Source: Eledone cirrhosa (taxonomy: Eukaryota). From it: DNA of 64,000 bases. The notes below the pieces were generated by a model. That model saw nothing but the letters and a program-made list of their open reading frames with translations. It was not told the DNA's origin and did not search any database. Location: positions 1,612,001 to 1,676,000 of the forward strand of contig OZ024761.1 of assembly GCA_964016885.1 (NCBI GenBank). Direction: 5' to 3'. Numbering within the stretch: position 1 is the stretch's first letter; every line of letters begins with the position of its first letter. The translations under genes were made by a program, and so were the position numbers. Of the stretch, positions 7,254-62,300 are shown in pieces.

Positions 7254-8088
7254 TAAACAATTAAGTTAAAAATGTACATCTACATATGCATACTGAAATA
7301 CTAGTGTGTATATGAATACACACACGTATACATATGCAGATGTAACAAGTCTTTCACTGGTTGCTTTACTGTGAGCAACCCAGCTATTCTGTATGTAAAC
7401 ATACAGACAAACCGGTTTTTAGAGTCATACTGGTTTTCGAGGAAACACCTTCCCTCTATTCTCCAGAAAGCCAGACAAGGAATATTGAACTAGTTTCGTT
7501 GTTGTTACAACTCATCAGCAATATTTACCTATCTACCGGCCTTTCTGGAGAATTGTAAAAGCACATATCGTTATATGCTTTTTCTATGAAAATTAGTAGT
7601 GGGCAGACTAATTTGCATAGAGTGTGAGTACGCACCGGTTCAGCGGAGACGATAAAAACAAATAACGAAACGAAATTAAATTTCGTTTCGTTTGTAACTC
7701 ACTTTTGTATGACTGACGCTTAAACAATTAAGTTAAAAATGTACATCTACATATGCATACTGAAATACTAGTGTGTATATGAATACACACACGTATACAT
7801 ATGTAGATGTAACAAGTCTTTCACTGGTTGCTTTACTGTGAGCAACCCACCTATTCTGTATGTAAACATACAGACAAATCATTTCGTTATTTGTTTTTAT
7901 CGTCTCCGCTGAACCAGTGAAAGACTTGTTACATCTGCATATGTATACGTGTGTGTATTCATATACACACTAGTATTTCAGTATGCATATGTAGATATAC
8001 ATTTTTAACTTAATTGTTTAAGCGTCAGTCATACAAAAGTGAGTTACAAACGAAACGAAATTTAATTTCGTTTCGTTATTTGTTTTTA
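7254..8088 (-). mobile_element. Retrozyme-like family 1: 467-bp non-coding hammerhead unit as 1.3 tandem copies (-) plus an inverted, deleted arm (+)
   Basis: 7254-7410 is repeated at 7721-7877 (period 467). Hammerhead at 7481-7525 (-), octamer at 7611-7618 (-). Near-identical to 38139-38590. Confidence 0.85.
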
Positions 8089-8278
8089 TATATATATATA
8101 TATACAACTATATCATCATCATCATCATCATCATCATCGTTTAACGTCCATGTTCCACGCTTGCATAGGTTTGGACGGGAGTTTTCCCCACTTGAGGCAA
8201 GAGTGGTTGTCTTGCTCGCATAGGACTGTCTGGCGGGTTTTCTACAGCTGGATGCCCTTCATAACATCAACCACATTT

Positions 8279-8843: not shown

Positions 8844-9579
8844 GAAAGATTTGAATGGATACAGTTTAGTTGAAAGGAATTTATTGACACGTGTTTCTAT
8901 AACAGTTACGTAACCTAAAACAGCTGCTATCTACAAACTTTTAGTTATGCAGACATTCAATATTTCAATGTTATTATTTACTGTCATTTCATCAGAATAA
9001 TATTACTGAGGACCTATTTAGTTTTTATAGAGAATATTAGGAGGGAGGGGTGAAGTTGTTAGAAGAATAGTTGAAGGAGTGGTTTTTCGATAGCAGTGAG
9101 AATTCTTGGTGGCAGTGAGTAATTAGATTCCCATCTGTTGTTTTGACATTTTTTATAGAATATATTATTGGTTATTTTTCTAAATCTATAGAAGGATTAG
9201 AGATAGTAAAGATATGCGTGGTTGGTTTTGTGTTTGCACTTAATTAACATTCAGACTTAAATTTTTCTTTCAAGTGTACGTATCCTTTCACCCACGCATT
9301 CACACACAAATATATTTGCACACCTCTACAAAATACATATACTCACAATTTACATATTCATACTTACATATATATACACATGCATACACATATATATACA
9401 CACATGTATTCATGTACATACAATGTGTATACATTTTCATACTTAACTTATCTTTATATACACATGTATAGACACACACATATATACATACTTACTCTAG
9501 GCCATGTGTACACACATACACATACATACACATCCATATACACATATATACATACATATACATATATATATACATATAG

Positions 9580-9685
<106 letters not shown>

Positions 9686-9986
9686 CATATACATATATAT
9701 ATACACATATATATAAGCACTTTAATACATGAATACACTTACATCTAACTATACACATCAAACATATATATATATATTTACTTATTTATATACATTTTCA
9801 CATATATATACATACTTATGGACGTTTTTAGACACATTCATTATCGCATATTTGCACCTATTCTCATCAGCATATCTTTCCATTATTAGTGTGGTAATTT
9901 AAGGTTATTAATATATGTTGAGAAGAGATTGTTTTTATATTTTTCTAACTAGATTAAGGTTTATATAGTTGGGGGATGTCCCTCTT

Positions 9987-11351
9987 TTATGTAATATTCG
10001 GCTTGTAGTGGGAAAAAAGGGTTTTAGTTCTGTGACGGCAGAATAATGTTCGTTCAATTCTGTTATTCAGCAGTTTCTTCTTGTGTGTGATTATGTAATA
10101 AATCTCAAGATTACACAATTTGCAGAAATTTTGGCTCCTGGAAAAGCTTTGGGTTTTAGCTAATTTCTCCCATTTTAGGGTAAACTTTTGATCGCTATCC
10201 CTGAGCGTCCAAGCTTTTTCTGCTAAAGTTGTTACATTTCTTTGGCTCTGGTGTTTTATTGAGTAAGAATGCCTATACAATCGAGATTTAAACGATGTTG
10301 CCGTTGATCCCACGTAATACCACTCGTTGCCTCCGGATTTAATGGTACACTTATAAATAATATTTTTTTCCAGGCAGTTATTGCCGAGGGGGCAGTTGTC
10401 AGGATAGGTGCAGTTACAGTTGTGTACGTTGGGTTTTCTCTGGAGTAGTATTGCGGACGAACTTAGGTGTGGTTTATTTATGTTCTGTAGTGTATTGTCT
10501 ACTGTTTTTTTTGTGTTCTTTGTACTTAAGTTCTTAGTGTTTTCGTTTAACCTTCTAGTATTGATCTTTTTTATGTGTTGTTCAAGGTTTAACGCTGTAG
10601 AGTATGACAGTCTTATAGTGGTAGGGTTTAGGATTTTGTGGTATTTGTGTGATGTGGGAAAATGTCTTTTAATTATTTTAAAGAAGAGTACTGGTAAATT
10701 TGTACTAATGGAACTATTGTATTCGGGGTTATACCATAAGTACTCTTTGCATCGCTTTCTATTAGTTTTGTTTGTTGGTTTACTGGTGTGCATACTATGG
10801 TAGTAAGTGTGGTTTGGTGTTGTGTTATTATATCTACCTATGTGGGATTTATTTTGGGTGTTTTGATTGTTCCCATCTATGTACTCTATTTTGTTGAGGT
10901 AGCCTGCTTTACTAAGGGCGTTATCGTAGTACTCGGCGTGTTCCTTAAATACTTGTATGTTAGAAGATAGACCCGAGATTCTAAGGGAAATATTTTTAGG
11001 GATAGATTTAATTATAGAGATGGGGTGGTTAGACCCAACATTTACGTATTTGAGATTTTCATTCAATTTATGAAACGGTTTAATTAAACCAGAGTTTAAA
11101 TTGAGTGTGACATCCAGGAAGTTAACTACTTTAAGGTTGTATTCATATGTTATAGTTAGTCCTATTTCGAGTAGTAGTTTTCTTATATCTTTGCGTAGTT
11201 TTTCTAGTTTTTGGTTATTAAGGTTTTTAGCTAGGAGGAGAACATCGTCGCGGTATATTCCGCCGTGGAGATTGCTGAATTTTTCCTGGAGTCTAAAGGC
11301 GATAAATAACCCCACAATATCAGTTATTTCCGCCGAATCGTTAGAGCCCAT
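9987..11351 (-). CDS. Penelope-like RT (C-terminal part) + CNC/CPL/C linker + GIY-YIG endonuclease, truncated
   Basis: MGSNDSAEITDIVG, GGIYRDD, VNFLDVTLNL, WYNP, CNC..CPL..CL, IIYKC..YVGST..FKSR and CKLCNLE. Confidence 0.9.
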   Translation of the reverse strand: MGSNDSAEITDIVGLFIAFRLQEKFSNLHGGIYRDDVLLLAKNLNNQKLEKLRKDIRKLLLEIGLTITYEYNLKVVNFLDVTLNLNSGLIKPFHKLNENLKYVNVGSNHPISIIKSIPKNISLRISGLSSNIQVFKEHAEYYDNALSKAGYLNKIEYIDGNNQNTQNKSHIGRYNNTTPNHTYYHSMHTSKPTNKTNRKRCKEYLWYNPEYNSSISTNLPVLFFKIIKRHFPTSHKYHKILNPTTIRLSYSTALNLEQHIKKINTRRLNENTKNLSTKNTKKTVDNTLQNINKPHLSSSAILLQRKPNVHNCNCTYPDNCPLGNNCLEKNIIYKCTIKSGGNEWYYVGSTATSFKSRLYRHSYSIKHQSQRNVTTLAEKAWTLRDSDQKFTLKWEKLAKTQSFSRSQNFCKLCNLEIYYIITHKKKLLNNRIERTLFCRHRTKTLFSHYKPNIT

Positions 11352-11417
11352 TGTTATGTCAAAGTTAGAGGGTCTATCTTTAAAAAACTATAAAAACTAA
11401 ATAGGTCCTCAGTAATA

Positions 11418-11537
11418 TTATTCTGATGAAATGACAGTAAATAATAACATTGAAATATTGAATGTCTGCATAACTAAAAGTTTGTAGATAGCAGCTGTTT
11501 TAGGTTATGTAACTGTTATAGAAACACGTGTCAATAT
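11418..11537 (+). ncRNA. Type I hammerhead with long stem II insertion (mirror copy at about 8880-9000, minus)
   Basis: tatt-CTGATGA-a-atgacagt...actgttat-a-GAAAC-ACGT-GTC-aata. Confidence 0.75.
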
Positions 11538-12129
11538 ATTCCTTTCAACTAAACTGTATCCATTCAAATCTTTCTATTTTTCTCCGGATTACTTTTGGAA
11601 CTACAACTGGAACCGTCGAGCAAACTCTACGTGAGCTGATAATCTACTGTGTGTAATATTTATATTACAACACAACGGAAAATACTGTATATATATATAT
11701 ATATATATATATACATACACACACACATATATATCTGACACCATCCACCACCTTCACCACCACCACTACTACCACCGCCACCATCACTAGCACTATCCAC
11801 CACCACTAGCACCATCCACCACCACCACCATCGCCACCAGCAGTCACCATCCACCATCACCACTATCACCATCACTGACACCATCCACCACCTCCACCAC
11901 TACCACCACCACCACCATCACCAGCGTAAAGCAAACAATTATTATTATTATTATATAAAAACTGAACTGGACTGGGAAAAGTCAACAGTTGACATGATTT
12001 TGATTTTGTATCAGTACTGCCGGTAATTTATATATATGTGTGTATGTGAGTGGTGTGTGTGTTTGTATGCATGAGTGTTGGTGTGTGAGTGTGTGTGTGC
12101 GTGTCGTGTCAATAAGTTTTTTTTTTATG

Positions 12130-38078: not shown

Positions 38079-38138
38079 TGTGTGTCAATGTGTCGATATA
38101 TTGGTGTGTGTCGATGTGTGTATGTCAATGTGAGTACG

Positions 38139-38590
38139 TTTAAGCGTCAGTCATACAAAAGTGAGTTACAAACGAAACGAAATTTAATTTCGTTTCGTTA
38201 TTTGTTTTTATCGTCTCCGCTGAACCGGTGCGTACTCACACTCTATGCAAATTAGTCTGCCCACTACTAATTTTCATAGAAAAAGCATATAACGATATGT
38301 GCTTTTACAATTCTCCAGAAGGGCCGGTAGATAGGTAAATATTGCTGATGAGTTGTAACAACAACGAAACTAGTTCAATATTCCTTGTCTGGCTTTCTGG
38401 AGAATAGAGGGAAGGTGTTTCCTCGAAAACCAGTATGACTCTAAAAACCGGTTTGTCTGTGTGTTTACATACAGAATAGCTGGGTTGCTCACAGTAAAGC
38501 AACCAGTGAAAGACTTGTTACATCTACATATGTATACGTGTGTGTATTCATATGCACACTAGTATTTCAGTATGCATACGTAGATGTACA
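38139..38590 (+). mobile_element. Retrozyme-like family 1 monomer
   Basis: Reverse complement of 7270-7722, with octamer at 38245-52 and hammerhead at 38338-38382. Confidence 0.85.
38338..38382 (+). ncRNA. Canonical minimal type I hammerhead
   Basis: aatattg-CTGATGA-gttgt-aaca-acaac-GAAAC-TA-GTT-caatatt, enclosed by the stem ttctccagaag / tttctggagaa. Confidence 0.9.
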
Positions 38591-45799: not shown

Positions 45800-46331
45800 T
45801 TTGAACGTTTGAAAGTATATACTTTCCTTATGCATATTAACGGCTGAGCAGCCTAATATCGTTTCATTTTTTCCATTTATCGTTTTCGGTGCTCCCGGCC
45901 GACTAACTCACTCGATATGCAAATTAGGCTGCTCAGCCGTTAATATGCATAAGGAAAGTATATACTTTCAGACGTTCAATCATCTGGCAGGAAGGTATAC
46001 GATGCTGACGATAGCTAATAAGCTTGAAACTAGTACATCGTTCCTTTGTCAGTGTTGAACAAAAGGGCAACGATGGTTGCTAAACACTGTACGGCTTTAT
46101 TCGGGCTTTTTGTTTACAAACAAACCGAGCATTATAATAAATGTTCGGTGAATCCATACGTACATATATATATGTGTGCATTTCTCACACTTAGTACGGC
46201 TGTTACTTAAATATAAGTATGTATACGTACATTCATATATGTATACAGACGTACAGTAGTATGTATATATATACATACATGCACACACATATATATATGG
46301 AAAAAATCAAACGAAATTTCATTTCTCACTC

Positions 46332-61410: not shown

Positions 61411-62300
<890 letters not shown>

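Follow-up and report, generated by a model that had tools for sequence, protein, structure and literature searches.

The window analysed here is a stretch of 64,000 nucleotides of Eledone cirrhosa DNA (contig OZ024761.1), and in it a short repeat, which we call family 1, occurs in two places, accompanied by two copies of a related repeat (family 2) and by a 5'-truncated coding Penelope-like element (Table 1). Positions in the family 1 unit are numbered from u1, which is window position 38139, over a unit length of 467. The initial annotation had described two near-identical, non-coding tandem copies with a period of 467. The two copies, 7273-7725 on the minus strand and 38138-38590 on the plus strand, are indeed 98.9% identical over 453 nt, the bases that overlap at a period of 467 agree at 155 of 157 positions, and the coding capacity is negligible, with no stop-free frame in the unit above 70 codons, or above 33 when counted from an ATG. 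What did not hold is the tandem status of these copies, as each has one hammerhead and neither is a dimer. The minus-strand copy is present but it is not a plain copy: 7254-8089 is a single insertion made of two inverted arms. The copy at 38138-38590 has an atypical end that lies about 14-19 nt short of the usual short end. Two annotated sequence words were found in their places, ATGCAAAT starting at 38245, 93 nt before stem I of the hammerhead, and the GAAACGAAAT/ATTTCGTTTC hairpin, which together with a T5 forms the end of the arm that stops at 8089. The fold predicted for the unit RNA is far stronger than those of shuffled sequences (z -11.3).

Table 1. Family 1, family 2 and Penelope-like features in the window
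Feature	Position	Strand	Details
Family 1 insertion, long arm	7254..7878	-	u314 to short end u4, 1.3 units, into (TA)n
Hammerhead of the long arm	about 7481-7525	-
Motif of the long arm	7608-7619	-
Inverted arm of the same insertion	7879..8089	+	u52-u92 piece, then u363 to long end u73, into (TA)n
5'-truncated Hydra-type Penelope-like element, inverted end	8844..11574	-	candidate RT source
Family 1 single-arm copy	38138..38590	+	453 nt, u467-u452
69-nt tail between two preferred 3' ends	38143..38211	+	u5-u73
Hairpin in the 69-nt tail	38171-38199	+
T5 in the 69-nt tail	38205-38209	+
12-mer TATGCAAATTAG	38244..38255	+	host Pol III proximal motif match; 5' strand of predicted RNA hairpin; A>G hot spot
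Inverted partner of the 12-mer motif	38267..38278	+	3' strand of predicted hairpin
TATA-like box	38285..38292	+	41 nt after motif start
Predicted long stem around the hammerhead	about 38310..38405	+	fold z -4.4
Type I hammerhead	38338..38382	+	predicted cut between 38375 and 38376 (GUU); helix III is palindromic ACUAGU
Family 2 copy	45854..46330	+	same motif, hammerhead core at 46005; right end approximate
Family 2 copy	61417..61993	+	432-bp unit, motif 61604, hammerhead core at 61693

Copy number, related families and the hammerhead

Genome-wide, 5,039 exact matches to a 39-nt core of family 1 were counted in 3.0 Gb and the reversed control gave none. When the motif and the hammerhead core were searched together at a spacing of 70-100 nt, 24,558 matches were obtained against 0 in the control, and among the first 100 such matches listed, 97 belonged to family 1 or to the related 432-bp family 2. 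Family 1 units are 467-469 bp long and lie head to tail, in arrays that reach 31 units. Family 2 has a 432-bp unit with longer subfamilies to about 500 bp and at least 16,614 exact motif matches, and its hammerhead has a GUA cut site and a U-U mismatch at the base of stem II. There is also a diverged 469-bp subfamily of family 1 (L259, L245, L284, and L178) that is about 87% identical, with a nearly unchanged tail, and whose hammerhead combines a GUC cut site with a compensated stem II; falling below the 88% cut-off beyond the tail, it entered the multi-copy A>G count only and none of the other locus analyses. The 31-unit array (L176-L177, G000:C1:5.738-5.752 Mb) contains a (TA)n junction of its own that breaks the run of units; at L109 and L084 there are an array in which units with and without a 13-bp duplication alternate and an arm with a 3-unit periodic A/G pattern. 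At three other loci (L173-L175, G000:C1 near 5.90, 10.12, and 11.89 Mb) single degenerate 12-mer sites are followed, at a distance of about 90-110 nt, by a hammerhead-like core; L173 resembles L175, and these sites are possibly relics of older families. In the window itself, hammerhead-like cores beside (TA)n occur at seven further places (7142+, 18517-, 20999+, 22809-, 23622+, 43723+, and 51700+), several of them as inverted pairs, and these are probably the ends of other Penelope-like families.

The hammerhead of family 1 has the parts that had been claimed for it, a stem I of 7 bp together with CTGATGA and GAAAC-TA-GTT, and its stem II has 5 bp. Cleavage is predicted after 38375, and the ribozyme is enclosed, as claimed, by a longer predicted stem. 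The label minimal is not appropriate, because this hammerhead, of type I with a short helix III, is the canonical form under the definitions in the available text of PMC4209133. The Rfam model HH9 matches both window copies at 38.6 bits (E 3e-6), which is below its gathering score of 52. Helix III consists of one C-G pair over a 2-nt loop and cannot close in a monomer, and therefore activity likely needs two ribozymes paired via ACUAGU. Activity through the pairing of two ribozymes is described for metazoan hammerheads (PMC4209133), and the amphibian hammerheads, in which helix III is weak, need dimers (PMC2220036, PMC6765202). The covariation check between family 1 and family 2, made on 7 sequences from the two families, showed both sides altered in 6 of the 17 hammerhead pairs, with 95% of the cells paired. 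Within family 1, the pair types that recur in at least 4 insertions comprise 7 compensatory changes, 21 one-sided changes that still pair, and 17 that are broken, and the variants include a swap of U-A to A-U in stem II and a GUC cut site. It counts against cleavage that in the lowest-energy fold of the monomer a part of the catalytic core is base-paired, and GUU is a weak cut site for a hammerhead. It has also been reported that 8 of 9 Xenopus dimers did not cleave (bioRxiv 10.64898/2026.07.22.740005) and that in the only Penelope-like element studied in vitro insertion was independent of hammerhead cleavage (PMC11167929).

Insertion ends, target and the coding Penelope-like element

Insertion ends were mapped at 121 loci, of which similarity or core searches supplied 61 and the long-end pattern 60; 9 of the 121 ran past the fetched stretch, leaving 112 for architecture. 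At 70 of these 112 loci there are two inverted arms with their 3' ends outward, one ending near u4 (the short end) and the other near u73 (the long end). Two long ends were seen at 1 locus and two short ends at 0, while 36 loci are single arms with one such end and 5 are irregular. A TA-rich flank is present at 181 of 182 ends; for the 60 loci picked by the long-end pattern, TA at that end is a consequence of the selection. Exact junctions with (TA)n number 2,060 for the long end and 686 for the short end genome-wide, and family 2 has the same two 3' ends, at homologous words, also into (TA)n. We had considered the long end as a simple Pol III terminator but this was dropped, because family 2 ends about 8 templated nt beyond its T6. 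The 187 5' ends are scattered, and among them there was no pile-up at the predicted cut site (9 compared to 8.4 expected) and no enrichment at the predicted transcription start. Small clusters of 5' ends at u190-191 (7 of 187) and u352-354 (7 of 187) possibly mark pause sites of the reverse transcriptase or an RNA 5' end.

Penelope-like elements are known to form tandems with an inverted 5'-truncated arm and a tail on one side only (PMC8557442), the tail of an anole element is flanked by two internal start sites of reverse transcription (PMC11167929), and (TA)n microsatellites are targeted by the Hydra (PMC8557442), Neptune, and Naiad Penelope-like elements. The inverted arms, the one-sided tail, and the (TA)n ends of family 1 match this pattern and thus indicate that it is very probably inserted in the Penelope manner. 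The initial annotation had gone further and named the neighbouring Penelope-like reverse transcriptase as the driver. The mode of mobilization is supported, but the choice of this neighbour is not, since architecture and target are alike and the tail is unlike. The neighbour, at 8844-11574, is young, all 150 scored matches being 99-100% identical and many of them lying within a 785-codon frame; the Hydra-clade motifs RWK, DKT, and CxCX5C are present in it, and its family shows two 3' ends into (TA)n. That family (L211-L217) has a tandem unit of about 3.6 kb, a hammerhead core of its own, and a tail of about 113 nt, compared to 69 nt in family 1. Between the tails of family 1 and of this element no likeness was found (score 25 against a shuffle mean of 25.5), and a search for a partner by tail similarity among three elements of the window, this one included, gave no match. 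A Pfam search with 5 ORFs of the window returned no informative family, and a homolog search returned 53 proteins, mostly unnamed.

A>G changes in the motif and the template of insertion

The variation in the 12-mer motif is nearly all A>G on the sense strand. For the 24-mer around the motif, 5,072 exact units were counted genome-wide; allowing A>G at its five As raised this to 6,796 whereas allowing T>C at its five Ts raised it only to 5,091, so that A>G added 1,724 units and T>C added 19. About a quarter of the genomic units thus carry A>G in the motif. The commonest A>G site in the sample is u116, which is in a UAG context and is changed in a minority of units on 5-6 backgrounds; UAG is a context preferred by ADAR. 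Over the whole unit there was no excess of A>G over T>C (37 compared to 30, and 58 compared to 55 in a larger set), which shows that the signal is local. A hint of 7 to 2 among private variants that are borne by the template became 4 to 3 once loci were added and was given up. For G>A over C>T an excess of 48 to 24 grew weaker after re-polarisation, at 40 to 24 (p 0.10), and the later counts were 63 and 45; at u262 and u264, outside CpG, G>A recurs in single units of several unrelated insertions. In family 2 far fewer units carry A>G, 446 of 17,060, a count that has no T>C control alongside it.

How these changes are distributed within an insertion bears on the template. Among the 76 insertions with at least 2 motif copies, A>G was present in all copies in 9 and in only some copies in 1, and in that one the change is at a junction. 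In 8 of the 9 uniformly changed insertions the change is on both arms, and in one it extends across 20 units. Likewise, in 56 of 66 two-arm insertions the arms differ at no more than 1 polymorphic site, compared to 4% of random pairs. The simplest reading of A>G changes shared by all copies, and of a haplotype shared by both arms, is that one edited unit-length RNA was copied repeatedly, and as the 5' ends are not concentrated at the cut site, a circle is favoured over a linear cut monomer. From these patterns we regard a circular template as likely. It does not account for every insertion, because 11 of 94 are mixed at 2 or more polymorphic sites and some arrays have a 2- or 3-unit periodicity, which points to later local duplication; arrays therefore also expand locally, and not all insertions come from one monomer. 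By inspection, none of the 11 mixed insertions had a clear haplotype switch at the cut site. Edited patterns that are common to related insertions (L238/L271 and L243/L260) could have been inherited from edited source loci.

The main alternative treats family 1 as a non-autonomous Penelope-like element whose template was a long linear multimer, transcribed from a homogeneous array and left uncut, in which case the hammerhead would be a passenger and a circle would be needless. The end architecture would be identical, homogeneous arrays of 18-31 units do exist, some insertions are mixed as just described, and for the anole element the main substrate in vitro was unprocessed RNA (PMC11167929). 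However, if each unit of a multimer were edited independently, about 27 insertions with mixed motif copies and 0.5 uniform ones would be expected, which is the reverse of the 1 and 9 observed. The linear multimer can be kept only if the changes were inherited from arrays that were already edited, and such arrays would themselves need repeated copying of a single unit. Moreover, compensatory changes are kept in the hammerhead. We therefore consider copying from linear multimers unlikely and copying from a circle the better account.

The promoter-like motif, the proposed cycle and known systems

The initial annotation read ATGCAAAT as an octamer like that of newt satellite 2, whose promoter is of the octamer/PSE type, and proposed that the element promotes itself. 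A self-contained promoter is plausible, but of another kind than in the newt: ATGCAAAT is contained in the 12-mer TATGCAAATTAG, which corresponds to the proximal element of host Pol III genes and not to a distal octamer enhancer. Upstream of three distinct U6 loci, of U6atac, of RNase MRP, and of both true tRNA-Sec genes, the 12-mer occurs at -77 to -80 and is accompanied by a TATA box near -31. Out of 24 U6 loci that were fetched 14 could be placed, 7 with the 12-mer and 7 without, the latter being retrocopies or array members that have another repeat in that position; in U6atac it is present at 1 of 4 loci. It was missing at that position from 7 U1 loci, 5 U2 loci, the RNase P gene, and a 7SK candidate, and U1 and U2 have a TCAGT-type word in its place. 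Small RNA gene promoters of this genome therefore appear in two classes, 12-mer plus TATA (U6, U6atac, MRP, and tRNA-Sec) and TCAGT-type word plus TATA (U1, U2, RNase P, and the 7SK candidate), as seen in the upstream regions of L066-L081, L031-L040, L122, L123, L218-L220, and L285. U1, U2, and U6 also have in common a TTACCTCCCTT-like distal word, which lies at -257 to -288. The two classes would be useful for the choice of guide-RNA promoters in this lineage. Promoterless copies of U6 and U6atac (L124, L125, L131, and L132) start right after (TA)n or (TG)n tracts, which suggests that Pol III RNAs may have been retroposed into the same targets as family 1.

With a weight matrix made from five host genes, the best score in the unit was at u106 and was equalled in 1 of 1,000 shuffles. 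Despite its resemblance to a host Pol III promoter, the unit departs from one in spacing, as the distance from motif to TATA is 41 in family 1 and 42 in family 2 compared to 46-48 in all seven host genes. The distal TTACCTCCCTT element of U1, U2, and U6 was missing from family 1. The absence of T4 from the stretch after the predicted start did not reach significance (p 0.18 and 0.08), and in one subfamily of family 2 a T4 does occur there. Local alignment of the element with the DNA upstream of U2 had been tried and was no better than with shuffles. The intact motif is in the majority on every well-sampled background even though about a quarter of units are changed by A>G, and hence source copies likely need it intact. 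On balance, we lean towards a working internal promoter.

The opposing view, which keeps the same mobilization, is that the element has no working promoter of its own and is transcribed by read-through, the 12-mer being an RNA hairpin, a protein-binding site, or a site used by Pol II. The deviant spacing and the missing distal element would fit this, as would a predicted hairpin in which the motif forms one strand; a 2020 review stated that retrozymes seem promoterless (PMC7761336), and newt satellite 2 is reported as a Pol II transcript (PMC2220036, PMC6765202). Against it, the 12-mer is identical in families 1 and 2, which are otherwise of patchy similarity, whereas the partner strand of the hairpin differs between them, and the 12-mer equals the host motif and persists in spite of its frequent loss by A>G. 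We consider this combined reading improbable. A third view would deny family 1 an RNA cycle and make it either a terminal repeat (pLTR) that became detached from a coding Penelope-like element or a satellite that spread by DNA-level events. It is largely refuted and very improbable, for although Xenopus retrozymes resemble pLTRs (bioRxiv 10.64898/2026.07.22.740005) and arrays do expand locally, the head-to-tail joins of units are seamless, any Penelope protein match is present at only 5 of 121 loci and at no fixed position, the shared flanks of single-arm loci are diverged 469-bp subfamily units where examined, and the strand-specific A>G changes together with at least 2,060 dispersed fixed-end junctions require an RNA step.

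The non-coding unit, its covarying type I hammerhead, and the 5,039 cores bear out the annotation of family 1 as a retrozyme, and an RNA intermediate and Penelope-type mobilization are likewise supported; it is almost certainly an animal non-LTR retrozyme, a known class. Taking the evidence together, it is probably a young, protein-free, high-copy retrozyme with its own U6-like promoter, which would be cut by the hammerhead and copied as a circle into (TA)n by a Penelope-type reverse transcriptase and endonuclease. The cycle that we infer from the observed sequence features, each of its enzymatic steps included, would be as follows. Transcription would start roughly 30 nt past the TATA-like box and read through the T-runs into the next unit, whereupon two hammerheads would pair through ACUAGU and then cut the transcript into unit-length RNA, and a host ligase would close this to a 467-nt circle. 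ADAR may edit the RNA hairpin that the promoter motif forms. After nicking (TA)n, a Penelope-type protein would begin reverse transcription inside the RNA, at one or the other end of the tail, and copying would go around the unit more than once so that both arms come from the same RNA; some arrays would enlarge further by local duplication. The stricter version, a self-promoting circular-RNA retroelement whose U6-type promoter lies in the circle and is damaged by editing, with one edited circle copied into both arms by a Penelope-type enzyme, we put forward only tentatively, as somewhat short of probable. If it is true, about a quarter of new units would be born with a damaged promoter, and the genome would provide direct evidence for the circle-template, Penelope-driven model of animal retrozymes. 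There is a hint in this that a mobile element may be held in check by RNA editing, which would damage its promoter in transit.

Circular templates and Penelope-type mobilization have been proposed for animal retrozymes (PMC7229834; bioRxiv 10.64898/2026.07.22.740005), and for those of vertebrates a Penelope origin was argued from co-occurrence and pLTR similarity (bioRxiv 10.64898/2026.07.22.740005). As far as the available texts go, the inserting enzyme, the circle as template, and transcription are steps that the literature has only proposed, and family 1 offers genomic read-outs in its Penelope-type ends, its marks identical across both arms, and its host-type promoter motif. It resembles the animal non-LTR retrozymes of coral, mussel, and axolotl (PMC7229834) and those of vertebrates (bioRxiv 10.64898/2026.07.22.740005) in being a short, non-coding tandem unit with one type I hammerhead each, in its thousands of copies, in its highly self-paired RNA, and in the Penelope-like elements alongside. 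It differs in size, 467 bp compared to the 170-400 nt reported for invertebrate retrozymes, and in that circles were demonstrated for those retrozymes whereas the circle of family 1 is putative. Its ends of tail and inverted arm, its editing scars, and its internal U6-like motif are unreported in the available texts of PMC7229834 and bioRxiv 10.64898/2026.07.22.740005, and a word search of the former, as available, found no cephalopod retrozyme. In the literature searched, outside which most subscription journals lay, no description was found of family 1, of retrozyme ends of the tail type, or of editing scars in copies.

The endonuclease-bearing Penelope-like elements of the Hydra clade (PMC8557442) share with family 1 the partial tandems, the inverted 5'-truncated arm, the tail at one end, the (TA)n target, and a hammerhead upstream of the 3' ends, but family 1 has no ORF and its tail is longer, 69 nt compared to 30-40 nt; it also has no sequence similarity to the still longer tail of the local coding element. 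Newt satellite 2 and the Schistosoma alpha repeats combine, like family 1, a hammerhead repeat with an internal promoter, which is snRNA-type in the former and Pol III in the latter (PMC2220036, PMC6765202); newt satellite 2 is reported to use Pol II, whereas the family 1 motif is of the host Pol III class and not of the U1/U2 class. The class to which family 1 belongs is itself known, and the copies of this family, with their Penelope-type ends, uniform A>G marks, and motif of the host Pol III type, make three steps of the retrozyme cycle testable.
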